Made by a program: the position numbers and the translations under genes. Source: Asterionella formosa (lineage: Eukaryota). Taken from it: a DNA stretch of 64,000 nucleotides. The stretch spans positions 1 through 64,000 of the forward strand of contig NKIB01013093.1 in the NCBI GenBank assembly GCA_002256025.1, given 5' to 3'. Under the pieces are notes generated by a model, which had not been told where the DNA came from, ran no database searches, and saw only the letters and a program-made list of their open reading frames with translations. Positions 6,341 to 63,863 of the stretch are shown one piece after another (within the stretch, counting starts at the first letter, position 1; every line of letters starts with the position of its first letter).

Positions 6341-7254
6341 TGATATATACTACCTAGTTGTATCACTTACTTTTTCTCTCTTCTCTGCTTCTAGCCCTCC
6401 TGCTAGAAACACTAATTGACTTTCTTCCTTAACAAACAGTTTCCTCAATTGATAATCAAAAATTATAAGAAAAACTAAAAATTCCTTTCCATGCATCTTT
6501 GCTTCCCACAAAGTCGTTCTAGGATTCTCTTTCGAATTTCCACTTAACATTTCCATAGAAATCTTCAATCATTGATCTCGCTAGATAGCTGATTGGCATG
6601 GCACAGCAATGCAAGGTTCGAATCCTCGTGACTCGAGCTAATATTCTTGACTTTCTCTTACGGACATTCCTACATATCATTTCAGAAACAGTATGTGTTG
6701 TGCCGGTACTACCTTGCACCCCGGTACCAGTACTCGGAATAATATTTTAGGATATGTACAGGCAACAAAAAGCAAATGTCATTGTCAGCGCACTTACTAA
6801 CTACCGGTACCCTGGTACCAGTACCTGGTACCAGGCACAGCTACGGAGCAATGGATCTAGAACAAGAGTGCGTATTTATTGCAGTGTGTTTACTCCGTAC
6901 AGTATGTATGATTGTTTTAGATCGACATGATCATGCATTAGTAAAATACAAATCATTTTTTTTATGTGCGGAAACGGGCGAAAAGGCTCGGCAAAAAACC
7001 AAAAAAACCCCGCCCTCTTCCAGACATAGTTGTCATTTGAAGCCGGTGCTTCTGCCCTTTTGATAACGCTCTTCCCTTCTTTTCTCCCTATTCCAATCAA
7101 CCCATTACAACCGAGAGATTCTAAAAGAGAGAATAGAAACGAACGCCAGAAGAATAAACCAAAACACTCCAGATCGTTCTATATGAAATTCTAAATCGTC
7201 ATTTTTTCTGCCATTGATCCTTGATAGTTTATAATCCACTCATCCGCAAGTACC

Positions 7255-17681: not shown

Positions 17682-18122
17682 TGTCTCCTATACTATATAG
17701 TTGAAAGACTCTAGAGACGAGAATGTCCCAAGGGGTTCGGATTCCAGGATGAATGTTGAAGTGAAATGTGCGGTCAGTTGTTTGGTATACCGATACTTGA
17801 TAAAATCATACAATGCTCATCGGAGAATGCTGATCACAAAGTAAATACTGCCTAGCACACAGTACCTGGTACCAGGTACCGGTAATATCCAACCATCATG
17901 ATCACAATTATCAGCCGTAAATACAAACGACTACCACAGGCGTATCTTACGATGAATCTAGTCGGAACTAGCAGGTTTCAGGGTACCTACGTACAGGTAT
18001 TCATTCCGTTGTTTTGTGATACGTACGCCCTAAAGCAATAACACGACTCGTAGAACCAATCCTCACAAATTATGTAACAGGCGGTAACAGTACTGTTATA
18101 CTGTGCACTCTGCGTTTCGACA

Positions 18123-18297
18123 ACCAGTACCTGGTACTACCTGGTACCTGGTACCCGGTGTACCGGTACTAGGTACGAGGTACCAGGTACCAGGCACCAG
18201 GTACGGGTACTCGACTGCTTGATTACCGGTACCAGTACCAGGTACCTGCTAGTAAGACGAAGCTTGTGCGAATCAGTCAGAATACCAGTACCGGTAG
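18123..18297. repeat. Largest TACCTGG/TACCAGG/TACCGG array, in the ABCG-CGR1 divergent intergenic region
   Basis: Dense run of TA-separated CCTGG, CCAGG, CCGG and CCAG units. Similar clusters occur near 6700-6835, 12815-12910, 17862-17885, 20636-20685, 23670-23697, 28185-28225, 28565-28597, 38115-38205, 44850-44962, 47700-47777, 58786-58990 and 61690-61818. Confidence 0.9.
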
Positions 18298-23532: not shown

Positions 23533-24012
23533 CGTTCTGATTTGCCTGTTGGCTACGGAGAAATGAATATATATAAGTACCGGTAGAATAGGAAAGCATT
23601 GGTATGAGATTATATTTGGGAGTTGGAGGGTTGTGTATAGCAGCCACTAAAAACCTATGATACATACTGGGTACCTGGTACTACCAGGTACCGGTAGTCC
23701 AGCTGTATCACTGATTCAAGGCATGCGTCGCTCGAGCAAAACATACATAGGAAATATATCGTATGTACGGGGAGTAGTCTACTTATTTAGTTCGAACCTC
23801 ACTGGTATACCGTTTCTACTGTCGTAGATAAGAAAATACCGGTAAATATGCTTTTAGAAACCCGGACACACACCGCCTGCTTCCACGGACTCGGGCTCGT
23901 TCCCGCCATCCTAAAAACTAGAGTACTGGTAGCCATTATCGCTGCATTAGCTATCATGGTCGTCGCGGAAGGAGGTAGAATATCATCGACAAGGACGACG
24001 ACTTCTTTCATC

Positions 24013-25578: not shown

Positions 25579-26603
25579 AGGGAAATGACGACGAAATCCA
25601 CGAATGATACGAATTTTGATGTGCATTCATTCATCGGCGTAGGATGGTTGTAAAGTTGTCAAGCGTATCTGTAGCAGTACAGGCAAAATGTGGTGATGAC
25701 ATGCGGCAAGGAAGACATCATAAGATACAATCGTCGAAATCAAAACGCGGTTGATTTGACCTATGCACTTGTAGTTGCTCCCAAGGTTTATACCCTCAGC
25801 ATTCCAGCAACGATATCTATTATGCTGCAGTGGAGTCCACGACACTTGGACTTCTGAACCTCCCACATATTTATGAATTCTTGTCATTGCCTGTCATCAT
25901 GTTGGCAGCTTCAAACCCCCTTGAAAGCTTGCTCGGACAAATGTTAGCTGATGCACGCAACAAAGATAGATGGCCATTACTCAAACCCTGTTATATGTTT
26001 TCAAAAGTCTTGTACTATCCCCGAGGCATCAGTTTTGTCTGCATAGAGCTCAAAACTTGCACTAATGGACACAGGTGCATCCACGACATCCAACCACATA
26101 CAAAAGCGGTGCCCCGATCTGGATATTACAACATGTTTTGATCCAAATTTTTATCATTTTGGGATCACGTTCCCCTCGCGCTGCGTAGGGGACAAGAAAT
26201 GGTTGTTTTTCATTGGAATTCCAGCTCATTGATCTTGGCACCATTTTCTCTTCCACCAAAACATTGAGCTGAGCCACTGTTTGTTGCGCATATGGGCCTA
26301 GGGCGACACTGAGAATGGAATTCGAATAGGCAAATACATCGCACACATTCATCAAACAATGGGGTACGAGCATCAATCGCATCCAGTTAAGGGAACAAAA
26401 TATTGGTTCTCGTGATACTCAAAATGGAGCATCCAGCTTTTAAGAAGTTTTCTCAAAGTTCTGACCTATTTAAAGCGTATGTTTCTTCCTGAAAATTTGT
26501 CGCAATTCAAGCTCAGCATTGATATTAGTATGTAACATTGTATTTTGTGCATTAGGCTCAAAAATCTAGGAACATCCAAGTATAAAGTATTTGTCTCCTC
26601 CGG

Positions 26604-28043
26604 CTACAGAGGGACAAATGAAAAGTTTTGATCTCTTTGAACCTTATGGTCCTCCCTAAAAATTTCTCTCTTCTTGAGCTCAGCATCAATATTTACATGA
26701 AACGTTGTATTTTGTGCATAGGACCCGAAAATAAAACCGATGCCGGAATGTGAATGGACATAGACGTCGCAAAACTTTATCAAACGAAAGATGGAATGAA
26801 GAATAACCACCTCTAGCCGAGGCGATTTAGATGGTACTTGTCCTTCCCAGCCTCCTTCGATTCCTCGATGACGGGTACGATTCAGATAAATCCAGTTGTG
26901 ATGAGGGTAGTTAGATTCCGCTTCTTCTATTGCGTTCTGGTCGTCGGTAAATAAAATTACATTCTGATGAAACCTATCTGGGACAGCCTTCTTGGCGGCG
27001 TCCATATACTCCTTGATGGCGTGATACCGCCGTGTCATTTTGGTCCGCAGCACCACGTCGGATCTTCGTACGTGAAGACACATGACCGGTCCTATAATTT
27101 CTGGTACGTTGGTCTTGACATAATCATATATCTCCTTCCGAAAACTTTGCTTTGGACGAGCGACGTAGTTCAGTAGATACGAATATGGTTTGATGTAGTT
27201 TTTGATTCTGGGATATAGGTTCAAAAAGTAGTTTCCATTGAAAGCCATGACTGCCTTATTCCAACACGAGGAAAAGGGTAGAAAATAGCATCGCATATCT
27301 TGCGTATCACATTGATCCTTGGCGTACATCCAAGGGGCGCGACGAAACACATTAAAGCTCATCTTGTTCCTCCTCCCATACTCCACACCATCAACTACGT
27401 TTCCAATATCAGCACCATACCCGGTGCTCCACATCTCCTTGTAAATGCTTGTACTGTTATTGCACGTTTCGATGTACTGACTCATGTATACTTCACGAAG
27501 ATACGATGCTTCTTCCTCGTCCTCCAAAGGACTAAAGCATAAGTGTGTATCATTCTCCTTACTAACACCCCAATCAACATGATGCTCCCACCATTCATCC
27601 ATGTTGTTGTCCCAAGTTACACAAAATGGAAATTTCAATTCTTGGGGTGGATTTCCCGATTTTTCACTAGACTCCCTATCAGATTCGTCTGTTTCTGAGT
27701 TGTATGTAATATTTGTCGATGCTCCCATCAATTTGTCTGCTATCATATGTGGCAGCGATTTGTCCGTGACAGGTTCCGATTCGGGCGCTACTAATGCACT
27801 TGATGATACATCTAGATTCGGAATCTCCAGTTTTGGTAATGATATGAACGAAGCATTCTGTTTTGAAGTTTCAGAAGGTTCTAATGGTGCGGTTTCCATG
27901 TTAGACTCGGGAATAGCCGGGAATTCGACAAGGGTTTTTAAGGAACCGATACACTGAAACAAGACCAAGATCGGTATAACAATAACGATCCAATAATTGC
28001 TGCCTCTCTGGCAAGGAACTTGATTATTTGTGAGCATATTCAT
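26604..28043 (-). CDS. Type II membrane glycosyltransferase, alpha-1,6-fucosyltransferase (GT23/FUT8-NodZ)-like
   Basis: N-terminal TM helix and stem, with motifs GYGADI, LHVRRSD, ILFTDD and CDVYVHSHSG resembling GT23 motifs I-III. Confidence 0.78.
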   Translation of the reverse strand: MNMLTNNQVPCQRGSNYWIVIVIPILVLFQCIGSLKTLVEFPAIPESNMETAPLEPSETSKQNASFISLPKLEIPNLDVSSSALVAPESEPVTDKSLPHMIADKLMGASTNITYNSETDESDRESSEKSGNPPQELKFPFCVTWDNNMDEWWEHHVDWGVSKENDTHLCFSPLEDEEEASYLREVYMSQYIETCNNSTSIYKEMWSTGYGADIGNVVDGVEYGRRNKMSFNVFRRAPWMYAKDQCDTQDMRCYFLPFSSCWNKAVMAFNGNYFLNLYPRIKNYIKPYSYLLNYVARPKQSFRKEIYDYVKTNVPEIIGPVMCLHVRRSDVVLRTKMTRRYHAIKEYMDAAKKAVPDRFHQNVILFTDDQNAIEEAESNYPHHNWIYLNRTRHRGIEGGWEGQVPSKSPRLEVVILHSIFRLIKFCDVYVHSHSGIGFIFGSYAQNTTFHVNIDAELKKREIFREDHKVQRDQNFSFVPL

Positions 28044-28442
28044 ATAAGAGGGCTGTATAGCTATTTCAAATGAAGGACGAGATGATGACAAAACATCAGA
28101 CGAAAGATAGCAAAATAGAAAATAATATGATTTGTATATAATGACCTGGATTTTGTGTAGGAATTAATACGGTGGTCAACCAGATACCTGGTACATGGTA
28201 CCTGGTAGCTGGTACCAGGTACCATCAGTACACAATACCGGTAATATCGCTCTTTCCTTTTTTCATTTATACGAGTAACAGTTACCGGTAGACTAACTAC
28301 CGGCATGTATTTTCACAGGAAATACAGACCGGTAGTGTCCCGGTACATTCTGTACTTGTACTTAGGGGTAACCATGGTGATCATGATGCAAACGAGCAAC
28401 ATGCAATGACATATATACACATACCGGTATGCGATCTACAAT

Positions 28443-28529
28443 TGCTTTGCGGTAATTGTGCTTAACTAAAGATTTAGCTTTGTTTATCTCAAATTAAATT
28501 GTTTATTTAAGCAAATTGACCACAACTTG
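28443..28529 (-). mobile_element. About 88-bp MITE-like element, copy C (inverted)
   Basis: Reverse complement aligns along its length with 40070-40156. Confidence 0.75.
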
Positions 28530-28964
28530 CTGCTGAAGTGTGCGTCGACGCCAGTACATTTTAATTACCTGGTACTCGAGTACCTGGTAGCAGGTACTAT
28601 GTGCAGCGCGCTGTGTGATGATGGCGGCAAGCAAAATACCGGGAAGTGGAACAGCAGAAGGATGATTCGAATCCGCGTCGTCGAGTTCGCCATGTGCTCC
28701 TATGTACTATCTATATGTATCCGTAGCTATTTAGTACTATTACATGGCACCGTTTGCACAAGCTACTTGGAATACCGGTAGTACTGCTGCCGGTGGAACC
28801 CTGTTACCGGTATAGACTGTAGCACGGTATACCATAAATATAGTTTATTAATTCTTAACTATCCTCTTTGCGAGATTCGCTCGCTGCTGCTGTAGAAGCC
28901 TTTGACCTCCTTGGGTCCTCCAAAGTCGGAGATCCCGTCACTTTCTCTCCACAGTGCATCCGCG

Positions 28965-29969
28965 ATGAACACAACCGCCCATATCGCATCGGTAGAAGCC
29001 CTAACGGATGACTCCGCACTCCTGGATGTAACTGGCTTTGAACGTATTTCCGATGCATTGCTAGGTCTTGCGTTTTTGACGACAGCCATTATTGCTGCCA
29101 AACGCATGAGCTGGTCCAGGCAACAAGGAGGCGCTGAAACGACGGTTGTGACCGCATTTTACTCCCTCATTCTTTTGACGAGCAGTCTGCGTACTATTTG
29201 GTTTGTGGTGCCAAGTTCGGTTTGGCAACCCTCCTACACGCCCAAGGCATGTTTCGCGTTCGATCCGCTCTACCCTTCGTGGTTTGGTGCATTCCTGTCA
29301 GAAGTTGTTTTGACAGCAGGATCGTTGGGACTTTTCTCTATTTTTATCCTCATTTTGGTTTACTGGGCCGACATTCTAAAAAAATACTTTTATCCCGGTG
29401 CCCGTCGGTCTCGTCCAATGATGACTTTTTTTGCTCTTGTTACTCTCTTGGTGGTGTTGGAGGTGGTCAATTCGCTACTGTTTTTAATGCAAGTATACTC
29501 CAGCGAGGCCATGATTTTATTCAATTCCTTGCTGTTGGCAACTGTTAGCATGATTTGTGTGGTCGAAATCACGATTTTCTCTCATCGCTTCCAGACGGTT
29601 CTTAAGACTCTAGGAGCGATCAATCAAGTCTCGACAGAAAGTCAAGTTAAGAGAATTGTGTGGATTACAGTCACTGGAAACCTTTTTTTCGCTGGGAGAG
29701 CCTTGTTGGAAACAGCCTTTGCTATACTCTTGCTGGGATATTGGCATAAAAACGGCAACGTCGAAAAAGTATTTTCCCACAAATTGTGGGATTCGTATAT
29801 TTTATTGAAGCATTGGTCGGAAGTCGCTATTTTAGGATTGATGCTGTATATTTTGCAATCAAGATTTACTGCCGCAGCAGCACGAGCTAGTGAAGGATAT
29901 GAAGCGGTGCCAGACACCGAACCTACCATTGCCCAAGTTGCAAAGAGTGACATGCCAGTTGTCGTTTAG
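28965..29969 (+). CDS. Multi-pass (about 7 TM) membrane protein, TOM1/THH1 (DUF1084)-like
   Basis: ATG at 28965. About seven hydrophobic segments, LFSIFILILVYWADI motif as in TOM1/THH1 proteins, and a C-terminal YEAV sorting-like motif. Confidence 0.75.
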   Translation: MNTTAHIASVEALTDDSALLDVTGFERISDALLGLAFLTTAIIAAKRMSWSRQQGGAETTVVTAFYSLILLTSSLRTIWFVVPSSVWQPSYTPKACFAFDPLYPSWFGAFLSEVVLTAGSLGLFSIFILILVYWADILKKYFYPGARRSRPMMTFFALVTLLVVLEVVNSLLFLMQVYSSEAMILFNSLLLATVSMICVVEITIFSHRFQTVLKTLGAINQVSTESQVKRIVWITVTGNLFFAGRALLETAFAILLLGYWHKNGNVEKVFSHKLWDSYILLKHWSEVAILGLMLYILQSRFTAAAARASEGYEAVPDTEPTIAQVAKSDMPVVV

Positions 29970-30797
29970 TTTTTGGAGTTGGAAGAAACTTAGGTCATGC
30001 TTTTTGAGATTCACACTTGGATCTAAAGTTGACAAAAAAGTTATAGATAATAAATTATTAACATTTACTTACTGTGCGCATGGAACTACATTATCAAAGT
30101 CATTTCTATCTTTGCTGATTGTTGAGCAAGGGTATTCTTGCCTTTTCGTGCCCTGAACCTAGATTATACCTAGTTATACCTTTACTTCACTTGATACTTA
30201 CCCATGCATACCGGTGTTTTTATACCTGGTACAGTGCGCACTCATGTTGTACTGGTACTCTGAATAACACATTCCGCTTGTTTGCAGCATAACATTTGCT
30301 ATTGCAATTGTGCATAAAATCAGGCGCTTTTCGCATTACCCGCATTTTTGGACTTTAGGCAATGACCACACGCCAAATGTCCTTGCATCTGAATATTATT
30401 CAGCTAATACTGATCAGGATTTTTCTTCCAAGTTACAACACTGATATGAAATGGTGAATGATTCTATTGTGTGTTCCATCAGAGGAGACAAGCTCCATCA
30501 CCCTGCCTGCATGTATGCACCATGAAATCCTATCATGAAGCTACTGTCCAAGCAAAAAGATTAAGTAACATCAGGCAGCATTACATAGGATTGTATTTCA
30601 AAATAGATTCTTACATGATATATTTTTGCTACTAAGCACATTCTTAATAGTATCCACATTTATAATACATTTCAGGGGACATGAATTCAGGTTGCATTCC
30701 CAGTAACATCTACTTTGCTAATGGTCTTTGGTAGAATCATCAAATGACCAGGTGATAATTGTGTGAGAGATATTCCAATTGAAAAATGCTTGAGAGT

Positions 30798-31140
30798 CAG
30801 GGGGGGGGAGGGGGGGGGGGGCACGGTTGNNNNNNNNNNCCCCCCGCCTCCCCCTCCCCCCCCCGCCTCCCCCCCCGCCCGCCCCCCCCCCCCCCCCCCC
30901 CCCCCACGGATGATAAATTTGAACAAGGAATAATGTTAGAAAGGACTCTTACTGTGTTTTGAAAGTAAAATAAATGAGAATGCATTTAAGTTTTGGGGAG
31001 AGGAGCAGAGAGTCTCGGACTGACGTGCAAAATGTCTATATTGGTTCGTTTCATTAAATAGAAAAACCTCTCTTTCGAGAATTTCACTGTCATCAAGATT
31101 GAATCGCGAAATGATTGTCGTCATGGACTCTCCTTTGATA

Positions 31141-31200
<60 letters not shown>

Positions 31201-31253
31201 CGGCGGGGGGGNNNNNNNNNNCTCCTTTGATACGGCCCCCCCCCCCCCCCCCT
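30798..31253. other. Two assembly gaps (N runs) flanked by poly-G/poly-C tracts
   Basis: N runs at about 30830-30839 and 31212-31221 sit inside homopolymers. CTCCTTTGATACGG occurs on both sides of the second gap. Confidence 0.9.
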
Positions 31254-32168
31254 CGTATTAGCAATAAAGTGTAGTGTAACCCTGAACATCCTGGGGAGCA
31301 ACAAACGTACCTTAACTCATGTGCCAGGATCATAATCAGGTTGAGCTTCACAGAATTGCTCTGTCAACATTTAACGAATATGCATATGAATTACTCCTAT
31401 ATCAGTTTTTTCTGAAGATAGAGATCACAACGACACCATCATTAGGCAAATACAAGAATTCATGTATTGTTAGTGGGGCACAGCTCCTTGTTACATTTGC
31501 AAAACTTTCTGGCACTTGAGGAGGAAGTATTCATTATCGTCAGGATTTTGTTGATTCTGTTCTATGTAATGCGTCGTATTGTATTGATCTTGGGGACGCA
31601 GATTACATACATAGAGAATGTCACCTTTTCGGGCAAACCGTACTACCGGTAGCTGCGGTAAAAGTCGTCGCTTTATCATTCCAAAAATTGTGACATGCCC
31701 AAGATCGCTATTGATTGTATAATAAATCTCTTTCTACAGAAGTTTACAATAGCTCTTGTAATGTGATTATGGTATTTCCGTCTTTGCTTGGCTTGTTGGG
31801 GTCATGATCAGAGATGATGACACATCGAGAGCCACCACAACATTGAATGAAACAACTCTGTGTTTGTAGCTGACAAACGGAGCTGGGTGTCTGGTAGAAT
31901 ACATACCGGGAGCCTACGGACTAAATGATTTTGGACTGCTACCTGGTACCATTAGTATCATATTTCGGGGTGCTATTTTGTACTGGAATGTACATACGAC
32001 GCAAGGATGGCTAAAATTCTCTGTTGATATTCTGAAAGCTTCGTTCCATCCTCATCTGCGGAAAGAAAAAGATGCTAGAACATCATGCAAATTGTAATGC
32101 GCACATTCTTTCGTTCACTCAAACACGACTTGTCGTCCCTTACTCAGATCGTTCACTAATTCGTTGCC

Positions 32169-36807: not shown

Positions 36808-37793
36808 GGGCGCGCTCTGATGTTAAAAACCTATTATAGTATCATATGTATTAAAAAAAGGGTGCACCCATAACTCCAAAATTTTATCAACACAAACACA
36901 TATTTTTTACAGTTATAAATAACAGTGTATAATATAAGTATATATTTAGGCATGCAAAGACTATATATAAATTCCTGTAATATTTCAAGACTTGCTTGCT
37001 CATACCCGAAATGGCTTGCTCTTACCAAAAAGGATGTCGGTATGCATGTACATATCTATAAACATCAATCATCCTAAAGGTATCATCAATTGTCTGCTTT
37101 CAGTTTTGTTGTGATCATGTCTTCGTGCTGACAATCCACCTGTAATACAATCTTAGTGGTCGCACCAGCCACTATCAATTCATGTGAAATGTCTGCACTG
37201 ATTGATAACCATAAGTCGAAATGAAGAAACTGAGCGCATTATATCATTCTATAAATTTGATTTTTAACTTTAATGTCACTACATCGTCAACACTGCCATA
37301 AACTAAAATTCATTTGCTGTGCTTCTTGTAAATGAAGATACCTTTTTCACTACAGACCTTTGTTACTGTAGCATCCTTTGGACAATGGCGTCTGCATGGA
37401 ACTTATTTTCCAGACAAAACACATTCCACTGAGTTTTTCCGCTGGTACCTGGTCGTCTCCATCTACAAGCTGCAATACATTTGGATTTGCTGCCAATTGC
37501 TCTTGGCGGCTGTTGAAATTAATTTTCAATGACATCAGAAACTGGATTGATTCCACCTGCGTCCCCATGGGAATTGATACAACATTTTCGTTGAAAGTCG
37601 GGAATAAGTTGGGCTTGCTGACAATCGCTCTCACCTTGGATGAAATTGATTCTTAATTTCATCGAAAACTTGATTGATTTCACCTCCATACCTATGGGGA
37701 TTGATAAGAACTTGTCACTGAAAACCGGGAATACTATAACTGTTATATATTGAAGTTAAATTTATTTAAAACGGCAGATATCAGAGCGCGCCC
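36808..37793. mobile_element. Non-autonomous PIF/Harbinger-like DNA transposon (986 bp), 14-bp TIRs, 3-bp TSD ACT
   Basis: GGGCGCGCTCTGAT at 36808-36821 and ATCAGAGCGCGCCC at 37780-37793, with ACT on both sides. It interrupts a roughly 20-bp minisatellite (GAAATTGCTGACTATGAATA-like) also seen uninterrupted at about 35942-36005. Confidence 0.8.
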
Positions 37794-38390: not shown

Positions 38391-39506
38391 CTAGTACATG
38401 GATATTTCCATTGCTTTTTTCATGTGCTCGAACCTGAATTGTTCACGAATAACACCGACAACATTCATGGGAACTTCTCGGTTCTGGATGGCACTTGTCA
38501 AAGTTGAATTAGAGGAGTCAAAAGCAGTGGAAGCGAATGAGATATTATCATCCAATGAAAACATAGAGAAAAAGTTGGGCTTGATGGGCTTGGTAACATC
38601 AGAAAGCATACTGATGTGTGTAATCAAGGCAACCAGTCCGACAATGATAAGGAGTCGTCGGGACCAGGAGTCAAAAGAGAATGCATGAAATGAAAGAGTT
38701 TTGGTTTTGTTTGGTCCCTGAAATGCAGCTTGAAGCCGAGTATGAAACCCTTTTTTCGCAAGGCGGACACGAAAAGCTGAAGTTATGGTGACAGCAGCTG
38801 TCGATTGTCGTTCCAGCTCTCCTTTAATAGTCAAATAGAGCTTCTTTTTCGCAAGATATACTCTCCCAGCATTTTGAAGAGTGGAAACAGCAGCTTGTTT
38901 CAATTCTTCCTCAAGAAGCGAATGGAGATTTATTTTGGCAAGATAAATTCTACCAGCATTCTGAATAGTGGAAGTGGCGGTGCATTTCAATTCTTCTTCA
39001 AGAAGCGAATGGAGTTTCTTTTTGGCTAGATGAACTCGAACAGCATTCTGAACAGTGGAAGCAGCGGCGCAATTCAATTCTTCTTCAAGAAGCGAATGAA
39101 GTTTTGTTTTGGTATGATAAACTCCAATAGCATTCCGAATGATGGAAGCAGCAGTACGTTTCAATTCTTCCTCATGAAGCGAATGAAGTAACTTTTTGGC
39201 AAGATAAACTCTAACAGCTTTCTGAATTGTGGAAGCAGCGGCGCGTTTCAATTCTTCCTCAAGAAACGAATGGAGTTTCTTTTTGGCAAGATAAACTCTA
39301 ACAGCATTCTGAATAGTGGATACAGCATCGTTGACTCTGTTGGGTAAGTCTGTTTCAATGTTGATTTGTAAAATTGGCTTCTCATGCAGGATGTTTGTTC
39401 TAGTGCTGTTTGATTTCTGGATACTCTCAACTGCAGTATCAAGAGCAACTTGAGCAATAACATATGATAAGGAAATCATGGCGGCAGTGAGAGCAACTCG
39501 AGACAT
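38391..39506 (-). CDS. IQ-motif tandem-repeat protein with C-terminal TM segment, 371 aa
   Basis: Six 29-aa units (AxSTIQNAVRVYLAKKKLHSLLEEELKxx; 87-bp DNA period) plus a seventh partial unit, then hydrophobic LLIIVGLVALITHISML. Confidence 0.8.
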   Translation of the reverse strand: MSRVALTAAMISLSYVIAQVALDTAVESIQKSNSTRTNILHEKPILQINIETDLPNRVNDAVSTIQNAVRVYLAKKKLHSFLEEELKRAAASTIQKAVRVYLAKKLLHSLHEEELKRTAASIIRNAIGVYHTKTKLHSLLEEELNCAAASTVQNAVRVHLAKKKLHSLLEEELKCTATSTIQNAGRIYLAKINLHSLLEEELKQAAVSTLQNAGRVYLAKKKLYLTIKGELERQSTAAVTITSAFRVRLAKKGFHTRLQAAFQGPNKTKTLSFHAFSFDSWSRRLLIIVGLVALITHISMLSDVTKPIKPNFFSMFSLDDNISFASTAFDSSNSTLTSAIQNREVPMNVVGVIREQFRFEHMKKAMEISMY

Positions 39507-40069
39507 GGTTTAAGTAATTAGGATGGATTAGCTGCGGAGATGCAGATACAAGATTGAAAAATAGTTACCGGTAGGCAGATTGATGTTACACAGAGGAAAA
39601 TCTTTATAACATGCATCCACAAAGTTCGGGAATTCTGTAAATTATAAGAGATCTGCCACCAATTCCTGATGGCATCCTTCACAATTATAATCACGGAATG
39701 TGTAAGTCATCATGAGAGAATGGTATACCACGTCAGCAATGAGTCCCGGTAGATACCTTGCAGGAAGATGTAGAAGGGTACCAGTTGCAATAGCACGACA
39801 GCATAATATTGAGGAACAAGAGGTTCCAGCAGGTAGTGTCTAACAGATGGGGTCGCTGCCGTAATGTAAGTTCAAGTTCAATTTTGTTGTCAAATACGTC
39901 AGAACGACGTCAGCAAGCAGGTTGACATGATCATTTTCGGAGCGAGAGTTAGACTACTGCTTACCGTACTGACTGGTAAGGAGTAACAGGCACTTTATTG
40001 TACAGTAGCTACAAGGAATTGTCAGAATTTAAGAAAGGAACCAGGTACCTACCACCGTGGTACTATCAG

Positions 40070-40156
40070 CAAGTTGCGGTCATTTTGCTTAAATAAACAA
40101 TTTAATATGGGATAAAAAAACTTAACTTTTAGTTTCAGCACAATCACTGCAACTTG
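40070..40156 (+). mobile_element. 87-bp MITE-like element with about 20-bp TIRs, copy B
   Basis: CAAGTTGCGGTCATTTTGCT ... AGCACAATCACTGCAACTTG. Confidence 0.8.
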
Positions 40157-40196
40157 TATGTACCAGTACCTACAAGGTAAAGTAGCAGGTACCAGG

Positions 40197-40845
40197 TGAA
40201 GTATCTAGCTAGAAGTAGTACCAAATCCTTCTGTGCAACTTTTTCTCTAGTCGACACCAAAGTAACCATATACAATAAGGGTTAGTCGAGTTCTCTCATT
40301 ATTGAGTTCTGATATATGACATAACTCTAACCCTGTATACATCTGTATTGATGCACGGGATCGCTCACTCTCCCAGCCACACCAAGGGAAAACCTTCTAC
40401 TCATGAAAAGGTTTGATGCGATGAAAAATAATTCGTTCCGTAATATGCATAGTTCGTTGAAAAGTAAATATACCATTGGCATGTACTTGATTAATAGAAT
40501 AAGGACCTCGTACATTGTCATTGAAAGTCGACTAGTACTAGGATTATCCAATAGGATTAAAAACTCGTCACCCATTTTGTAATCACAAGAGCGCCAACGG
40601 AAATTAGCACGACGTAGATATTCGTCAATTATCACTTGTCGATGTTGATTTATTAATTGCAAATCTGTAATCAAAGGAAATTTTAATATCATATTCCGTT
40701 GGAAAACCCATGCTCCTGGTGAAATACGCAATGAACTATAAATAGTCGTAGCTCAAGCTGCATATGATGCAGCTGCAAAACATGTATCCAAAATATTTTG
40801 AGCTTGAAATTCATTAATAGGAGAATGAGCCTTTAACATACACTT
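40197..40845 (-). mobile_element. Truncated Gypsy element: 3' LTR (40368-40197), PPT and integrase C-terminus; same family as 54266-58786
   Basis: Reverse complement aligns with about 58100-58786 (TGAGCGATC...TACTTCA LTR, GGGAGAG PPT, ISPGAWVFQRNM...DYKMGD integrase tail). Confidence 0.9.
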
Positions 40846-43449: not shown

Positions 43450-44676
43450 TCATTCATACTTTGCTAGAGCTTTCTTCACTCCAATTCTGTATTGAAGCGA
43501 TGACCGGACTGCACCGTGACTGCTTGCCAACAATGTCTCGTCTTGATCCACAGTCGTTGATTGGAGTTGCTCTAGGCTTGCTTCACGGTCAACAATTGCA
43601 ATCGATCGTCCGGCAGTGGCTCCCTCTGCTAACCGTCGCTTTCCAAGAAGCTGCTGTGCAACAATTGCAAAAGCAGCCTCACCATCCAAGAATCCATAAT
43701 CCTGCAGAAAGCGATCGTTTCCTGCTACACCGCCACCATAGCAAATATTGATTTGATCACCAGCAGACACTGACTCTCCAGCCACCACCTTGAGCTCGCC
43801 TCCTGGTATGGCCCTTCCAGTCAATACATGTGGACTGGATCGATCATGATTGCACATGTCGAGAAAGGGAATCAGCAGTCGGTACGATTTGTTCTCCTTG
43901 GAGTCGCCTTGTACCGTCAAAACACGTGAAGTGATTAACCATGCAGCCCATCGAAGATGAGCTTCCTTTATTGGAGTTCCATCAACCCATGATGGAAACG
44001 CTTCATTTGTAGCAATGTCTTGATTAAATCGGCGTTTTGTCCGCTCTCGTCGCTTGGTTGTCTCCTCCACTATCAGAGGAGACTGCAATGCAGCCATGGC
44101 GTCATCTGGGAAGAAGTCGGTACTACCCATGCAGTCTTCGCCTTGAAAAGGAGGAAGCATGTGAAAGTACATAGATCTTCGGTCATTGGCCTCCGAGGGT
44201 CCGAGAGCGTTACAGTAGAGCCTCAACAATTCCATCCCAGGAAGCGTCGGATCTTCTCCTTCCCCTCCCAAATTAATTGCTAGCTCGTAAGGGATACGAA
44301 TCATGACATCGCCCTTTTTCATGTCCTTGAGTGCCACGACACCACGAAGAGTTCCGCCACCATCAGGCAATGGAAAGTATCCTAGCGCACATCGCTTTAA
44401 ATTTTCCCCCGCTCCGTTTTTTTCTATAAAGTCGTAAAATGCCATGGCATCCTTGGAGCGGTCCATATCGACAGCGCTGGTTTCGCTTGTTTTTGCAGAA
44501 GAACCGAATCCCTTGACTCCGGCAGAAGCGGGACCAGTCTTCTTCTTTTTCTTGTCATCCTTGGCAAAGCGGGGTGTGGATTTTTGAAATTTGGACGATG
44601 GGAAGGTTGCAAATCCATGTACGCATGAATTTGCCAAGCCAAATAGAAAAATGGCGGTGACCTTTACAGGTTTCAT
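43450..44676 (-). CDS. SET-domain lysine methyltransferase (Rubisco LSMT-like), predicted plastid-targeted
   Basis: Signal peptide ending VHG|F. Motifs RGVVALKDMKKGD, LIPFLDMCNH and ICYG...NDRFLQDYGF. Confidence 0.9.
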   Translation of the reverse strand: MKPVKVTAIFLFGLANSCVHGFATFPSSKFQKSTPRFAKDDKKKKKTGPASAGVKGFGSSAKTSETSAVDMDRSKDAMAFYDFIEKNGAGENLKRCALGYFPLPDGGGTLRGVVALKDMKKGDVMIRIPYELAINLGGEGEDPTLPGMELLRLYCNALGPSEANDRRSMYFHMLPPFQGEDCMGSTDFFPDDAMAALQSPLIVEETTKRRERTKRRFNQDIATNEAFPSWVDGTPIKEAHLRWAAWLITSRVLTVQGDSKENKSYRLLIPFLDMCNHDRSSPHVLTGRAIPGGELKVVAGESVSAGDQINICYGGGVAGNDRFLQDYGFLDGEAAFAIVAQQLLGKRRLAEGATAGRSIAIVDREASLEQLQSTTVDQDETLLASSHGAVRSSLQYRIGVKKALAKYE

Positions 44677-45310
44677 AGTTTCTCTCCTTCGACTTAGGGG
44701 GGAGAGTGGTTATTAAAAACTCTTGTGGAAGAGACTACTGATATTATGACGACAGAAGCCGAAGCATTCAAATGCAAGCACCGCCACACTTGTCGGGAGC
44801 CATCCAGTTTGACAAATGTCATAAATACAACCGGTAGCTCAATATTGAATTGGTACCGCTAGGTTCCTGGTACCTGGTACTACATAGCTATATAGCTTAT
44901 GATAGCCTATCGTATTACATACCGGTAGCTACATAGCTTATGATACCGGTAGCCTATCGTATCCTCTGCCATTAGCCAAATGTGACGCACCACGCTCAGC
45001 CATCAATCACATCCTCAGCATAAAAGCAATTCATCTACCAGTACCGGTACTTACCGGATGGATACCGTATGATGTTATGATAAAGATCTACCCCATACGT
45101 ACAGGTAGTACTGTTGATCATCTATCTTTATTTTCATACATGATTATACATATGCGTATGCAAACCATGTGCAGACAATGTGGATAGAGTAGACTACATA
45201 CCGGTACATGATAATATCTTCTTACGTACCTGTATTTACAATCAAAATCATTCTTTCCATGTTGCGACAATAACAGTAACAACAAGCGCAGAAACAACAA
45301 TGCCGAGACA

Positions 45311-46872
45311 ATGACATCAACTCTGATGACGACCATCACACTCACCCTACTCCTCTCTGTAGGAGATGCTGCTTTCACGTCTGCTCCTCGCATGATCGAG
45401 CAGCCCCGACCCTCCCGTCGAGCTGTTGTTGTTTCGTCCATCTTTGGAGGAAGTCTATTCGGAGGAGGATCCGTCGAGCCGAGCAAGGGGGCCACCAACG
45501 AGGTCCTCAAAAGTTCCCATGGTATGAAGCAACGCCGCTTGGGCGGGTCAGACATTCTAGTGAGTGCCCTAGGACTGGGCACCCAACGATGGGTATCGAC
45601 GGACTTTAACGCTCCCAACGAGCAAGAATGCTTTGCGTTTATGGACGAAGCGATTCTGAAGCACGGCGTCAATTTGATTGATACGGCAGAGCAATATCCC
45701 ATTCCTAGCGACGGAAGTCGAGCGAAGGAAGGAGATACAGAACGATGCATCGGGAAGTGGATGAAAGAACGGAAGGTGTCAAGAGAGAAAGTCGTGATTG
45801 CCACCAAGATTACTGGAGGGCGGAATGTCACGCCCAAGAATATCAAGGCTGATTGTGAAGGGTCCTTAAAGAGGTTGGGAACAAACTATATTGATGTCTA
45901 TCAGGTAAGTTCGTTGCAGGAATGTCATGAATTAGATATTGGCCTCGTGCTCAAGTTAATGTTTTGATGCATGTAGCTTCACTGGCCGCAAAGATATTCT
46001 CCACAGTCGAATTGGGGTCAATCCATGGCTTATAACATTGACAACGACAGCAACCCCTACTGGCGGTCCAATGGAGGACCAACCTCGTTTGAGGACCTGT
46101 GCTTGGCGATGGAAGGACTCATTCAAGAAGGAAAGATTCGGGGATGGGGATTGTGCAATGACAATGCATATGGTCTCACTGCCTGCACAAGGACTGCTAA
46201 GGCATTAGGAGTCACCCCGCCGTGTTCAATACAGGGTGATTTCAGTCTCATTGATCGCAAATCTGAAGAAAATGGAGTAGCTGAAGCTGCATCACCCTTT
46301 AATGAAAATGTTGGTTTCATGTCATGTACGTAACATAACTTGTCTCTTTTGTTTGTTCTAACGTCGGGATCAGAACCAGGAATTCACCAATGACTTTTTT
46401 CAATTCTCCAGACAATGCCCTCGCGGGTGGAATGTTGACTGGCAAATATCTGAGTGTCCCTTCCGCTTCAGACGATATTGGTGAACGCGCCAATGCTTCA
46501 TTTCGTCAACCTCGGGGTCGCATGGACACGCGTGGATGGGGCCAGACCCTCTATAGGTATCGAACTGACGCGGTCCAAGATGCGATACGGGACTATGCCA
46601 CAATTGCTAACGAGCACAAAATGACGCTCACGGAATTGAGTTTGCGATGGACACAGCAAAGATCCTTGGTAACGACGACGCTGGTAGGGCATTCGACACT
46701 GGAACAGTTGCAAGAAAGTTTAAAATACTTTACAATGAAGGAGCCACTCTCGGATGAAATCATGTGGGCCGTGGATCGTGTGCACATGAGAAATCGACTT
46801 CCTATTTTCAGTTCCAATAGAGTAGGATCAGATTGGTATGGATCGGGTGAGATTGGTGAACCGATTCCATAA
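45311..46872 (+). CDS. Aldo-keto reductase (Tas-like), predicted plastid-targeted; exons 45311-45904, 45977-46325, 46412-46872
   Basis: Two GT-AG introns restore LGLGT, IDTAEQY, IATK, IDVYQ|LHWP, GKIRGWGLCN and S|YNALAGGMLTGKY. N-terminal signal peptide ...GDAA|F. Confidence 0.93.
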
Positions 46873-54265: not shown

Positions 54266-57200
54266 TGAGCGATCTTGCAAATCAATACAGATGTAAATAG
54301 GGTTAGTGTTATATCATATATATCAGAACTCAATAATGAAAGAACTCGACTAACCCTTAATGTATACTTTGGTGTCGACTTAGAGAACGAGTTGCACACA
54401 AGGATTAACTCATATATCCAACAATTACTACTACTACTACTTCTAGTTAGATACTTCACTTTGAGTTCAAAAAGAGTCCAATTAAAATTAATAATCATGT
54501 TGATGTACTGTCCTCTCAAGTTCCAGTGGTCCCATTGATGAAGGATAACAACATACAGAGCATCAAGACTCAGACCTCTTTGTGTATCCTTACAAGCCAG
54601 GTCGATTTTTGGAGTCTTTCAACAAAGATATGATCAATTGACACTCAGGGGAATCTTGTTAATTGATTTCAGTAAATTCTGTGATATGGCTAACACATAT
54701 ATCTTCAGTCCAGCAGATTCCTCTCTTGTTATCCTACTGCTACAGAATATGCATTTATAGATATCGCCTTGTCTGACTGGATGAGCGTTGCAATACATCC
54801 AGCCAGATGCTCAGTCCTATGACAGTCTCAACAAAATCATGGTGATGTGGCTGGAGCATTATTGTACTCATGACTTGTTTTTTGAGAGTCAGCATCATTG
54901 GATGTGGATTTTCTGATAATACTCAATTAAACCGTTCAACATGCTGTTGATGAATGTCGCTGCCTGTTTCAAGACCTTAAAGAAGTTCCTAAAACTCATG
55001 ATAACTCATCCAGAAGATCAAGAGGTTTCCGCCAAGGAAGATTTGAGGTTGATTGTCATTTTGCTTGATTTACAATGTGTGGCAACAAGTGCTGTTTGAA
55101 TGGAACAATGAAAATAACACAAAAGAATTGATTCGCTTTGTTTTGACTTACTTCGAGAGTCAACAATAATTCAAAGATCAACTCAAGCACATCCTCAAGC
55201 ATGAGTTCTACCATAAGCCGAAATCGACTTCGCATCGCTGAAGGCAATCGTGTTATGTCGAGAGAACGCACGTGCCTGGTGTCAATTTTCTAACACAAAA
55301 TCGAAAATAAATAGTTAAAAGTTGAAGAAAATCCCGTGATGCATCAAGAAAACAAGCGTGACTTGTGTCAATTTTAACAAAAGATTGTCTTTGCATTGCT
55401 GATTTCAGTCCCGTGATGCATCAAGAAAACAACCATTTCCAGCGTCAATTTGTACATGATTATTTTATACTAAGTGGTAATGATAGGGCACATGCATTTT
55501 AATGCAGCTGGCCATCCATGGGATAGTGAAACAACGGTCAAACATAAGTCCTATCAAGAAAACATTACTAACACTACTAACCCTGATCCTGTTCCTGTTC
55601 CTGTTCCTGTTCCTCTTGCATGAAATTCTACGCAGAGCGAATTATCATACTGACACAGCTAACCTGCCCTATTCATGTTTTTCTTCTGTGCATGTTTTAT
55701 ACAAGTAAATCCATGGATTAACCCTATGATGATGTCTGGTTAGGGTACTGTGCCGAGGGCCATATCTGCCGACTTTTATGAATCTGCCCAGGAAAATTTA
55801 GTGGTCATGATGAATCCTCCTGGTGGTCAGCTAGTGGCCTATGTGCCTAATAAAAGCCAGCAGAATGCTGAACAGATCGCCTTAACAGAAGTATGTGCAA
55901 CAATAGCAATGCTATGATTTTTATAATATATATATATGTATATTTATGAGCAATAGTACATTGAATATGTCTTACATCAATCATTACCTGGATAACATTT
56001 GCTATATTTATAGGATAATTACAGGTTGGAAATCACCGCTATTGAAAGGCGGGATATGATTTTAAAATGCAAAGGTAGATTCAATATATCATTCCATATG
56101 CACATCTCAAGGCCTGATTCCGGTCTCATTTCACTCTTTGCCTAAGAATGCATAAGCTTCATTGCATTTCATTCCCTTTTCACTACCAACCCAATGATTG
56201 GTGGCTGCTGTGTAGCTATATACATGACATAAGATGAATGTTATTTGATCACGGTGGGTCCTGATCTTTAACTTATGAATAGATTGTACTTCAGGACATT
56301 TCGTTGTCCATCGAACATTTATAATTAATATATACCATTCATAGCAGGTATGATCTTTTATTCCTTTGCCAGTACTCTTTCATAAAAAATGCATGATGCT
56401 CCAACAATGTCATCCGCCATCTTGTATCCTGTAACAGAAGTACCTGGTCTTAGTACATTCTGCGAGTTTGCTCATTTGTCCAGCTGGTTAATTGATGATG
56501 GATTTTGTACAAAATAACATGTCCTGTGTGGTGGATATATCAGTGTTTTTTTGCATGTCATTGATTCCTATAATGATACAGAACATTTTCATAATGGGGT
56601 CTGATATTTTGATAGATCTATCAAGGATTATGTTTACACATGGAACATTAAAGCTGCAAACTATACAGTTACGGAAAGGTGCTGTTATGGCTGAAATAAA
56701 TGTATTTAACCACAAGTCATCAAGCACACCAATTCCAAATGAAATGGTCTGTTGAAGAAACTGACTCATTAGGATATCGATAAACTCCAACCAACCTCAA
56801 ATTTTGGTTTTCACAATTAAAAAAGGATTTAAATGGAACTGGTCCATTTGTCTGGCTACCTATGCATACATCAACAAGCTTTTGAATCAATGAAAGCATT
56901 GTTAGTTGCTGCAGATACACTCATGCGTTATCCTAATCGTAATTTTCCTTTCCATATTTTTACTGATGTTTCTGATTTTCAATTAAGAAACTTTCAAAGA
57001 ATTTCGCTCTAGCTATGTAATTGAAAGCGGTTCTACATGTTCACACTGAGCATCGTATTTTTTTTTATAATACCCTACACAGACACTCAACATCTTCTCC
57101 GGTGGAGGATTTATATTGAAGAATATCTTCTTACTTTTCACGATGTGAAGGGTACTGATAAAGCTAACTATTACAGATTTCTAGTATCTCTCGCCTCTCG

Positions 57201-58786
57201 AGGCTTGAGTCTTTGGTTGGGGATGATATTGGGCCGAAATCTTCAGCATCAACTCCACTTCTACTTTCTCAATTGAATTAGATGATGAACCTCCTCTGTG
57301 TACCTGTTTACTCAATGATCCAATCTTGGCAGACAATATTCAATATCCTCTGGATTATAATTCAATACATGATAGACAATTGCTGGATATACAATTGATT
57401 CTCAATCAAACCACAAATCTCATTCTTAATCAACAAACACATCCGTTGAAATTTCCCTCTATCAATTTTCATGATATACATTTAATATGTTTTGTGAAGA
57501 ATCCAGGAGATACTTGGCATATTGCTATTCCTACATCACTATTGGATCCTATTATTAGTTGGTATCATCAGATGTCAGCTCATGTGGGTATGACAAGATT
57601 AAATGCTACAATTTCTTCACATTTTTTAACCCTCCATTAAAAGCAAGAGTGGAACATATTGCAAGCATATGTGAAACATGTTAAGACGTACAAAATTACC
57701 TGGTGCTGGGTTTTGGTGAACTTCCACCAAGGAATGCATTGTTATTACAATGGTCAGAAGTCACAGTGGATTTCATTGGTCCATGGAAGATAACAGTGGC
57801 CGCACAAACGATTGAATTTCGTGCTCTAACTTGAGTTAACACAGTCACCAATTTACCAGAAATTTCATGTATCAATAACAAGACATAAGAATATATTGCA
57901 ATGAAATTAGAAAATGATTTGTGAGGCAGATATCTCCGTCCAGAACGTTGTATATATGACAATGGAGGTGAATTTACTGGTATTCCTTTCATACACATGT
58001 TAGTGTTGAATGGAATTAAAAATGGGACTATTATAGTCAAGAATCCACAAACAAATGCTATCTGTGAATGTTTACATCAATCTATCAGTAACATTCTACG
58101 AGATATGTTAAAGGCTCATCCTCCAATCAAGGAATTTCAAGTTCAGAATATTGTGGATACATGTTTTGTAGCTGCATCATATGCAGCTCGAGCTACTATT
58201 TATAGTACATTGCATATTTCACAAGGAATAGACTATGGCTGAGTTTTCCAACATGATATGATATAAAATATTCCTTTGATTACAGATATGCAATTAGTAT
58301 TGGGATATCAATGTCGAAAAGTGATAATTGACAAATGTCGATGTCATGCTAATTTCCATCATCGTTCTTGTGATTACAAAGTTGGTGACGAGATTTTAAT
58401 CCTAGTATTGGATAATCCTACTACCTTGGATGAGTGTGGACAAGGTCCTTATTCTAATATTCAAGTATACCAATGGTAAAGTTACTTTTCAACAAACCAT
58501 GCATAATACGGAATGAATGAATATTCATTGCATCAAACCTTTTCAAACAAGGTAAAAGGTTTTCCCTTGGTGTTGTGGGAGAGTGAGCGATCTTGCACAT
58601 CAATACAGATGTATATAGGGTTAGTGTTATATCATATATATCAGAACTCAATAATGAAGGAACTCGACTAACCCTTATTGCATACTATGGTGCCGACTTT
58701 GAGAACGAGTTGCACACAAGGATTAACTAATAAGCTCATATTCAAAAAATACTACTACTTCCAGCTAGTTACCGGTAGATATTTCA
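54266..58786 (+). mobile_element. Degenerate two-LTR Gypsy retrotransposon; LTRs 54266-54458 and 58584-58786
   Basis: TG...CA direct repeats with about 8 mismatches by eye in the first ~145 nt. TSD CTAGG/CCAGG and PPT GGGAGAG. RNase H remnant ([25 protein letters not shown]) precedes the integrase remnant (WYHQMSAHVG, VDFIGPW, DNGGEFTG, NPQTNAICE), the Gypsy order. RT is largely missing. Confidence 0.93.
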
Positions 58787-61689: not shown

Positions 61690-61818
61690 TGGTACCTCGT
61701 ACTATTCGGTGTACCTGGTACCTGGTACCTGGTAAAACTACATTCTTATGTAGGTAGCAATACCTGGTACCTGGTACCTGGTACCAGGTACCTGGTACCT
61801 GGTACCCTGGTACCAGTA
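61690..61818. repeat. TACCTGG heptamer array upstream of the selenoprotein gene
   Basis: (TACCTGG)n runs with interspersed TACCAGG, TACCCTGG and TACCAG units. Confidence 0.9.
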
Positions 61819-62392
61819 AGTAAAGCATAATAATCGAGCTTATAAGTTCAAGGGTTTTGCTAATCCTAGACCTACAGGCGGGTCTACCTGGTGGCCACAG
61901 AAATTGCACCCAGCGTTTTAGTACCGGTAGTCGAGTTTTGAGCTCACAAACAACATTTGAAAAGCTTTTGAGATCCCATGCATCATTCTGTTACTGTTAG
62001 TATGGATGACTTACCCTGTTTCGCCGCCCAACAAAAGGTTGACCCTGGTTTGGAATCTCTTATGATCATTCCAGGCAGGTCAAAAGCTATCAAGAAGAAA
62101 TGTTTTGTAATGAGGGGTCAATCTTTATGGGACAACTCTCATACAAGTTAATCCCATGCAGCAATCACCTTGCATGGTGAAATTGACCAAGAAGGTCACC
62201 CATGTTATGGTAATGGGTTTATTGCATGCAAGGGTATAGACCCTATATTTGTGGCATTCCACCAAACAAGAAGAAGATGCACCAGTTGTTGGTTTCTTGA
62301 ACAATAGAGAATAGCCCCTCCCTCCCCCAAATGAAATATTACGAGGTTCTCAAATATACTATTGTTTATGTCCTTTCAGCCCCTCACACGAT

Positions 62393-63863
62393 ATGGTAGG
62401 GCTTTCAGATACCGGTAGTCGTGTCCTCCAACTCACCATGAAGTATCGTGGAGCCATGGATCTTGTCAAGAATTTTGTACTTTTTAGTAATTGCAACAAC
62501 AAAAACAATTATAATAATAGCACAACATTCAAAGCTGCTATTACCAGTAGCAGTAGACGAGAATTGGAAGCCATATTGTTCCGGCTGATCCAGAATGGGG
62601 TACCGGTACCCTGTATCCCTTGGGGTCACCATTGGGTATTGCAAATGGTGTACTACTCTCTACCAGCCACAGTATGGGTCTATGAGTACACACAGGCACA
62701 AAATACAATGCGACAGAAGAAACGATGCATCGACACTGCGGCTGATAGTCAAACAGGTATTATAATGGCAAACAGTGCAACTATTGGTATTGCACATCAG
62801 GATTGATCCAAGATTACGTCCCTTTCACGGAATGCTCCCTTCTTGTATGCACTAGCTAGGTCTCACCAATGAACGAGGTGAAACCAAACCAACCAAGTCA
62901 GCAAAAATAAAGCGATGTAAAAAATTTGTGGAAATTGTTAGTCACTTGATCCAAATTGCATTGGTGGAACCCACTGCTGCTGCTGCTCCTGCTGCTGCTG
63001 CTGCTCCTCCTCCTGCTCCTCCTGCTCCTGCTCCTGCTCCTGCTCTTACTACTCTTAAGAGAATCATATTATGTACTGACATGGGATGTGGTCAAGGATA
63101 CTTGACATTTTCGTTACAGCATCATTATTTAAAGGAAAAGTGTCATGGGAAGCAAATACAAATCCACTCGAAAGGGATTGATATGAGACCCAAATTGGCT
63201 AAGGAAATGAATGATATTGCAACGAAGCTGAACATGGAAGGATTAGCGTTTGAAGGAGGAACTATTGAAGATGGGTTATTTCCTCAGACTGATGACCATG
63301 AGCGGTCAATAGTACATGCTGCAACCACAGAAAACCCATCACTTGACATTTTGATTGCCCTGTATGCATGCGATTCTGCCACAGATGATGCCATTTGGTA
63401 TGGAATGTTACAGCAATCAGATATTATTGTGGTGGCCCCATGTTGTCACAAACAAATTCGACAACAACTTGACCAATGCTTGTCTACAACTACCACTACC
63501 ACCAGTCATCCACTTGGATCTGTCTTACAGCACAATGTGTACAAAGAACGCATGGCCGAAATGGTCACTGATTCCATCTGTGCTCTATTACTGGAATTGA
63601 CCAATTATCGAACACAAGTCTTTGAATTTGTTGGTGGAGAGCACACATCAAAGAATCATGTCATGATTAATGCAGTGAAATGAACCAAGAAACGAACTGT
63701 CCAAGAACAATGTGAGTTGAGGACCAAGTTAAAGGCACTGGCAACCTTGCATGGGGTCGTCAATCAACAATTGGCCAAGTGGATGAATGTAGAGTTGAGT
63801 GATAACATTCCATCAACAACAACAACCATGAAGCTATCAACCAAGAAAATGCCTCCTTTGTAA
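62393..63863 (+). pseudogene. SAM-dependent methyltransferase (Methyltransf_32-like) pseudogene
   Basis: Motifs DMGCGQGYLTF, IALYACDSATDDA, VAPCCHKQ and VFEFVGGEHTSKN. In-frame TGA at 62804-62806 and 63681-63683 and a +4 frameshift at about 62855. The reading continues 59 codons to TAA at 63863. Confidence 0.8.

Follow-up and report, generated by a model that had tools for sequence, protein, structure and literature searches.

The DNA of this diatom carries many short palindromic units in which a few bases, beginning with CC and ending with GG, stand between two TA dinucleotides, and these CC..GG units are probably the excision footprints of TA-targeting pogo-type (IS630-Tc1-mariner) transposons belonging to two element groups. 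The units are gains at sites that formerly held a single TA, the genome has abundant elements whose ends match, and the element groups differ in their choice of target. That elements were excised at the unit sites we infer from these sequence patterns; a footprint origin is likely, and we are somewhat less sure of the assignment to two element groups and of the self-targeting described below. An earlier note on this DNA had proposed one CC..GG-ended element as the source of all footprints. The single source is not upheld; the data instead implicate two or more element groups that differ in the targets they choose.

General features of the locus

The window, which is the whole stretch of DNA analysed, comprises the first 64 kb of contig C13093 in an assembly of 68.4 Mb. 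Diatoms are the main source of named homologues for its proteins, and the sequencing runs that contain it are mostly freshwater or algal metagenomes. A SET-domain gene on the reverse strand (open frame 43450..44709, PF00856) and a divergent aldo/keto reductase gene on the forward strand (first open frame 45215..45967, PF00248) flank an intergenic 35-bp tandem duplication, located upstream of the SET-domain gene. Read on the forward strand, copy 1 (44881..44915) has both TA sites empty, whereas copy 2 (44916..44962) has two TA-CCGG-TA units (44920-44927 and 44944-44951); on re-reading, both sequences are exactly as the earlier note gave them. When the two CCGGTA inserts are removed, copy 2 is identical to copy 1 at 34 of 35 bases. 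A TA-CCTGG-TA unit (44871..44879, forward strand) stands immediately upstream of the duplication. Blastn found no match to the intergenic stretch in six other diatom loci, which leaves this pair with no outgroup, and in metagenomes the locus had only distant relatives, with 50-65% protein identity, whose DNA was not alignable to the intergenic stretch. Two gains in copy 2 would be the parsimonious reading of the pair.

Abundance and distribution of the units

In the window, TA-CCGG-TA occurs 41 times against 0.6 expected from an order-2 Markov model, TA-CCTGG-TA 27 times (0.4 expected) and TA-CCAGG-TA seven times (0.5 expected). A sample of 264 kb that was not selected for the motif, composed of the window and loci L231-L250, has 106 CCWGG units and 89 CCGG units, where an order-3 Markov model predicts 1.8 and 4.8, respectively. 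As two CCGG units and no CCWGG unit are present in 43.8 kb from three long loci of other diatom-like records, the feature looks lineage-specific in this small sample. Scar context was counted in 751 kb that remained after de-duplication and in which element flanks are over-represented; the spacers comprise 330 CCGG, 341 CCWGG, 205 CCAG/CTGG and 148 CCG/CGG, and CCGCGG is absent. Among six-base spacers, CCAGGG/CCCTGG is found 51 times and CCACGG/CCGTGG never. CpG decay of CCCGG/CCGGG was rejected as the source of CCWGG, with 20 such units against 341 CCWGG, and is also countered by CCGG (330) being more frequent than CCAG/CTGG (205); part of the CCAG/CTGG units may come from CpG decay. TA-CA/TG-TA (288 versus 150 expected) and TA-CG-TA (50 versus 22 expected) are also enriched in L231-L250 and the window, and may represent further scar types or CpG decay.

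Outside the approximate gene intervals (24 kb) of the window lie 74 of its 75 units. This distribution could indicate that selection has built the palindromes as binding sites in promoters and maintains them, as has been proposed in Phytophthora, where TACATGTA lies upstream of 12,070 genes and was read as a transcription-factor site (PMC3520976). The exclusion from exons, however, is also expected from selection against the original insertion, the other diatom-like loci (43.8 kb) have so few units, and clean gains of 6-7 bases are found in dead transposon copies and in a pseudogene, as described in the following section. An origin as selected binding sites is thus very improbable, while a later co-option of some units as binding sites is possible.

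Polarity of the units

The earlier note described an empty and a filled allele in the two LTRs of a decayed, putative Gypsy retrotransposon on the forward strand, and the pair is as claimed. The 5' LTR (54266..54458, left flank CTAGG) is empty at 54443-54452, and the 3' LTR (58584..58786, right flank CCAGG-TA) is filled at 58765-58780, with a TA-CCGG-TA unit at 58770-58777. Because the corresponding site is empty 58 times and never filled in other copies of the LTR, the unit was gained by the 3' LTR of the window.

Small indels were polarised by comparing about 840 kb of genomic loci and the window all against all; an indel was used if one copy alone carried it and three or more others did not. 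This gave 347 insertions and 126 deletions. Gains of the type TA>TA-CC(n)GG-TA make up seven of the 42 polarised insertions of at least 5 nt: CCGG was gained three times, CCWGG twice, CCG once and the double CCTGG-TA-CCAGG of 14 nt once. No exact unit was lost among the 126 polarised deletions; possible losses at two minority-copy sites are the near-unit AACCGG, of 6 nt and found twice, and 11 nt that include TACCG. A further gain, absent from the earlier note, is found in a methyltransferase pseudogene (62601..62608, forward strand), where TA>TA-CCGG-TA is in frame and gives EWGTGTL instead of the EWGTL of intact homologues. The short allele is therefore ancestral at the LTR site, at the seven polarised gains and at 62601, which argues against the short alleles being deletions from longer ones.

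The same pseudogene has a further TACCGGTA at 62410-62417, where the TGS peptide is common to the homologue P0100; at this site P0100 is about three residues longer than P0101 and P0102, and the unit may be an older gain in common with P0100. A private TA-ACCA-TA gain occurs at 40263, in an inverted fragment of a second LTR-element copy (40067-40840, corresponding to 58104-58639).

Strains were compared over 11000-30750 in four runs, and no clean unit is present among the 12 indels listed of 58. Two strain contigs are 7 bases short over CCWGG-bearing stretches (20551-20853, with 0 mismatches, and 13318-18109), the gaps being unlocated within them, and are only suggestive of unit polymorphism. 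An element allele and a scar allele at one site were found neither in about 750 kb of unique sequence nor in the four runs over 11000-30750, a thin data set for this purpose.

Transposon families with matching ends

The genome has 93 matches to PF03184 (DDE_1), several of which are identical, and two pogo families have ends that begin with CCG. Exact TA|CCGTAAAACC ends of the first family number 109, against 4 for the control, and exact TA|CCGTATACTTC ends of the second number 324, against 2. Complete copies (L161, L099, L089, L188, L053 and others) measure 2.2-2.7 kb, with TA on both sides and terminal inverted repeats, and derivatives measure 0.6-1.4 kb. DDE_1 transposases were identified by Pfam in L161 (E 3e-20) and L099 (E 8e-9). 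In both families there is also a second ORF, convergent and about 145 aa long, that contains Cys/His residues (L161:3023-3460, reverse strand; L099:1380-1841, forward strand), and a Pfam search with that of L161 gave no match. Profile searches of the genome with DDE_3 (PF13358) and Transposase_1 (PF01359) found nothing, the latter having no match in the control genomes either, and classical Tc1 or mariner families are consequently not demonstrated. A CAG-ended pogo element (L032) was rejected as a source of scars, TA-CAG/CTG-TA being barely enriched (51 versus 36 expected).

The second group of elements, a divergent clade resembling pogo, has CCAG or CCAC ends. De novo search found TA|CCAC-ended copies, and exact TA|CCACY ends number 437 genome-wide, against 8 for the control; exact TA|CCAGY ends number 155 against 11, with a pattern that leaves out ends with C seven bases upstream. 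The CCAC copies L261, L191 and L242 have both ends, a TA duplication and terminal inverted repeats, and L261 is a 2.9-kb element with a broken transposase. P0001, an intact relative of this transposase with 90% identity, has many diatom homologues, and the genome contains at least 70 matches to the P0001/L261 type. For the CCAG branch, the contig of a relative (L268, 55% identical) starts TA|CCAG by a CTGG flank and adjoins a long open frame, and opposed pairs of CCAG ends are present among the ends listed for the genome. An alternative in which GTAC is duplicated and the ends begin with CAC reads alike at most sites, but 12 of 100 CCAG ends lack the G, and the gains at L004 and L054 duplicate TA only.

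Transposases of the CCAG/CCAC clade have no Pfam match above the cut-off and no sequence match in PDB. Features from the ESM language model match them to DDE_1 clusters (0.96), and the six best Foldseek hits of the predicted P0001 model are all Mos1 mariner structures, with a probability of 1.0 and an E value of only 1.4e-3. In the transposase alignment (A1), D241, D390 and D428 are invariant and 37 residues separate the last two. Passer-type pogo elements have DD35D catalytic spacing; the 37 residues of this clade differ from it, for a triad assigned from motifs. The TA-flanked elements with matching termini that the footprint proposal calls for are thus present at high copy number, with CCG, CCAG and CCAC ends.

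Target choice of the elements and context of the scars

CCG-ended pogo families choose TA sites without flank bias: of 91 distinct flanks, 26 have G before the TA, where the background is 25%, and an intact unit adjoins one of the 91. The ends of the CCAG/CCAC clade lie in a different context. All 17 CCAC ends have G before the TA, and 10 of the 17 adjoin an intact unit. A hand count of the 100 CCAG ends listed, of 155, found G-TA before 88 and GG-TA before 75, and a TA-CCWGG unit directly before 30, compared with 0.7% of all TA; these 100 ends are not all independent, because some flanks recur (for example, TAGGTGG).

The scars show the same division. A G..C context surrounds 222 of 341 CCWGG units and 46 of 330 CCGG units (Fisher p 7e-44), and a neighbouring unit is present for 174 of 341 CCWGG and 53 of 330 CCGG (Fisher p 3e-22). 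The flank bias of each scar class therefore matches that of one element group. Within the CCAG/CCAC clade, the 51 CCAGGG/CCCTGG spacers against no CCACGG/CCGTGG point to the CCAG subfamily.

Arrays of units

As described in the earlier note, the arrays parse as TA-x-TA with shared TAs, and some units are mutated (CATGG, GCTGG, CGAGG). On the forward strand, the longest (61761..61822) has three CCTGG, CCAGG, two CCTGG, CCCTGG and CCAG. Others are a mixed array of CCTGG, CCAGG, CCGG, CCAG and mutated units (18127..18295), an array of 7-bp period with two mutated units (28185..28223), one with CCGG, CCCTGG, CCAG and CCTGG (6802..6834) and one in which three different units, CCTGG, CCAGG and CCGG, follow each other (17863..17885).

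Such arrays could be ordinary microsatellites, in which rare seeds have grown by slippage or unequal exchange of a 7-bp unit. TRF does detect period-7 arrays, and the window contains triple CCTGG runs as well as a CCTGG:CCAGG strand skew of 27:7. The composition of the arrays nevertheless argues for independent events. Adjacent CCWGG units are the same in just 36 of 68 pairs, the others being 17 A-T and 15 T-A (p 0.72 against 50:50), and this 36:17:15 split is the 2:1:1 of independent events, whereas slippage predicts otherwise. In addition, 757 of 885 chains are single units, the polarised gains arose at TA sites with no identical neighbour, and the 14-nt gain consists of two different units. 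Growth of the arrays from rare seeds is accordingly very doubtful, and the suspicion that units are gained only beside identical ones is answered by gains at lone TA sites and by array neighbours that are not homogeneous. Slippage is not needed for the arrays, and may add to the longest one. Duplication of CCWGG by the LTR element was rejected as a source of arrays, since it places no TA between the two copies of CCWGG.

A second signature and the balance of scars and elements

A second class of insertions, XY>XY-(C|G|GC)-XY, occurs at any dinucleotide and accounts for 171 of the 347 polarised insertions, of which 33 are at TA. Indels of 3 nt comprise 152 insertions versus 9 deletions, and those of 4 nt 64 insertions versus 8 deletions. 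Where a 2-bp duplication can be read in one way only, 70 of 71 insertions of 3 nt have C or G in the middle, and 16 of 22 insertions of 4 nt have GC as the spacer; TA is the duplicated pair in 14 of 70 and 2 of 16 (GC) of these, respectively. Examples in the window are found at 55090, 55807, 58403, 58546, 40745 and 35809 (3 nt), and at 35424, 40373 and 62853 (4 nt). This signature would fit either an element that has G..C ends and duplicates 2 bp, or a staggered break of 2 bp at which each end receives one additional G; among the matches listed in the de novo searches there is no convincing family of the former kind.

This class takes over part of what the earlier note had ascribed to one CC..GG transposon. 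The attribution to CC..GG ends stands for CCGG, CCWGG and the CC..GG variants, and fails for C, G and GC, which belong mostly to the any-dinucleotide signature. Likewise, TA-GC-TA in the methyltransferase pseudogene (62853..62858, forward strand) does explain the +4 change of frame near 62855 relative to the intact P0100 and P0102, as proposed, but belongs to XY-GC-XY and is not a CC..GG footprint.

Scar density here is about 0.7 per kb, with scars chained through shared TAs. Extrapolated from long contigs, in which 195 units were counted in 264 kb, the scars would number about 50,000, and the elements with exact ends number about 500 (from 1,025 ends, a lower bound), which gives a ratio of roughly 100:1. 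Very high element turnover is therefore needed. It might instead be supposed that a transposase or a repair enzyme writes the units without a full cycle of insertion and excision, by aborted integration at TA and trimming or by filling of a 2-bp staggered cut with added bases, and that the same host repair step also makes XY-(C|G|GC)-XY. The excess of scars over elements would be explained in this way, as would the commoner 2-bp-duplication signature, which comes with no element found. Yet the spacers are equal to the ends of resident elements, the flanks of each scar class follow one element group, and fixed spacers of 4-6 bases are not expected from untemplated addition. We consider such a shortcut unlikely, and excision footprints of the two element groups are the preferred reading.

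Other repeats and the possible use of arrays as landing sites

The LTR family represented in the window at 54266-58786 (also L002-L030 and L102-L130) has 3' flanks that begin with CCWGG-TA in 25 of 29 copies and 5' flanks that end with TA-CCWGG in 22 of 33 hits, a few of which are not true 5' ends, compared with a background of 0.0006 per position. Apparently this family inserts into G-TA-CCWGG-TA-C and duplicates CCWGG. Sequence-specific integration is described as exclusive to Drosophila errantiviruses and their derivatives (PMC5408687). An 88-bp MITE with 397 exact ends also lands in CC-W-GG; it is found at 40069-40157 and 28446-28530, with single ends near 20499 and 48896, and at loci L201-L230. 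Its adjoining bases are nearly invariant G and C and the outer ones are variable (L202, L204, L218, L225, L229, L013), which fits a MITE with G..C ends that duplicates a single A/T base pair better than it fits a duplication of CWG.

Among the remaining repeats, an element of about 1 kb at 36808-37793, with GGGCGCGC inverted ends and an ACT duplication, is possibly Harbinger-like. The Harbinger-type transposase PF13359 has at least 150 matches in the genome, and about 40 with identical scores suggest a recent burst. Tandem repeats of 115 bp (2925-3371) and 87 bp (38834-39320, within a 372-aa ORF) are present. Poly-G and poly-C tracts with two N gaps at 30800-31260 probably mark a G-rich element end at which the assembly broke. 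The read depth at 19567-20884, about 60-fold in three of four runs and about 30-fold in the fourth, marks this segment as a high-copy repeat.

Proposed origin of the units and comparison with known systems

We propose that an element would insert at TA and, when cut out, leave a few terminal bases as 3' overhangs, which end joining would then fix between the two TAs. Overhangs of CCG could anneal through their terminal CG to give TA-CCGG-TA, dispersed like the insertions of the CCG families. The CCAG/CCAC clade would give TA-CC(A/T)GG-TA, with CCAG overhangs pairing through CAG around a central A-A mismatch, that is, the logic of Sleeping Beauty with one more base. The length of the overhangs and the mode of joining were fitted to the spectrum, given that CCG/CGG (148) is rarer than CCGG (330) and CCGCGG is absent. 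The CCAG/CCAC clade prefers GG-TA-CC, half of which is supplied by every scar, so that it would land beside old scars and add one unit per cycle; growth by one unit per cycle could build 7-bp arrays with no slippage. TA-C-TA, TA-G-TA and TA-GC-TA would come mostly from a different process. A broader reading, to which we give somewhat less than an even chance, is that a pogo-like transposon regenerates its own target, that the resulting arrays serve as landing pads for the LTR retrotransposon and the 88-bp MITE, and that, with the XY-(C|G|GC)-XY type included (half of all small insertions in repeats), scars of break and repair exceed polymerase errors as the main source of small insertions in this genome.

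If this proposal is correct, footprints, usually seen as rare curiosities, are among the most over-represented words of a genome, and small insertions arise from them recurrently. Array length would record past transposition at a site, and a short tandem repeat could arise by a route free of slippage. Intact natural transposases, among them a DDE_1 frame of the CCG families, P0001 and a 779-aa open frame on contig C14068, are candidates for direct testing. Neither genome-wide TACCGGTA footprints nor arrays built from footprints are described in the literature searched, which was poor in subscription journals, and the words footprint, mariner and pogo are absent from the main text of a recent preprint on diatom transposable elements (10.1101/2025.10.24.684338).

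Compared with the pogo superfamily (Pfam DDE_1), the elements are alike in the TA target duplication, the terminal inverted repeats, the DDE_1 domain of the CCG-ended families and the predicted mariner-type fold of the CCAG/CCAC clade. They differ in that the transposases of this clade have 700-1000 aa and are missed by Pfam, in the spacing of 37 between the second and third putative catalytic Asp, and in the strong GG-TA-CC target.

Transposases of the IS630-Tc1-mariner type duplicate TA, and 0-4 terminal bases stay behind when the element is excised (PMC9976928, PMC7913693): 0-4 bp for the pogo element Passer (PMC9976928), 0-3 bp for ZB (PMC7913693), and canonically cag or ctg for Sleeping Beauty (PMC5224488). 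The diatom units share with these footprints the TA duplicated around a short spacer of terminal bases, and with those of Sleeping Beauty the central A/T ambiguity, although the A/T class of the diatom has five bases. The former are assay products at single donor sites, whereas the diatom scars are fixed genome-wide. In rice, clean excisions were only 8 of 94 and most were untidy (PMC4423477), in contrast to the uniform scars seen here. Natural footprints of Stowaway in intron 4 of the Triticeae beta-amylase gene retain 2-4 plus 1-2 terminal bases, and in one case a new element had inserted beside an earlier footprint (PMC1925063). That history concerns one locus over millions of years; in the diatom, re-insertion next to a scar is a preference measurable across the family (30 of 100 listed ends) and would build arrays.

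The closest parallel is motif-1 of Phytophthora promoters, TACATGTA, for which its authors rejected a footprint origin because of its abundance and conservation (PMC3520976). In this stramenopile, too, a TA-xxxx-TA palindrome is abundant upstream of genes, and its form is identical to a Tc1 footprint. If the present proposal is correct, the argument from abundance that was used against footprints in that case (PMC3520976) is weakened, and abundant TA-xxxx-TA promoter motifs of other eukaryotes, now called binding sites, might have a footprint origin as well. The diatom units differ from the Phytophthora motif in that their abundance goes with a demonstrable insertional origin.
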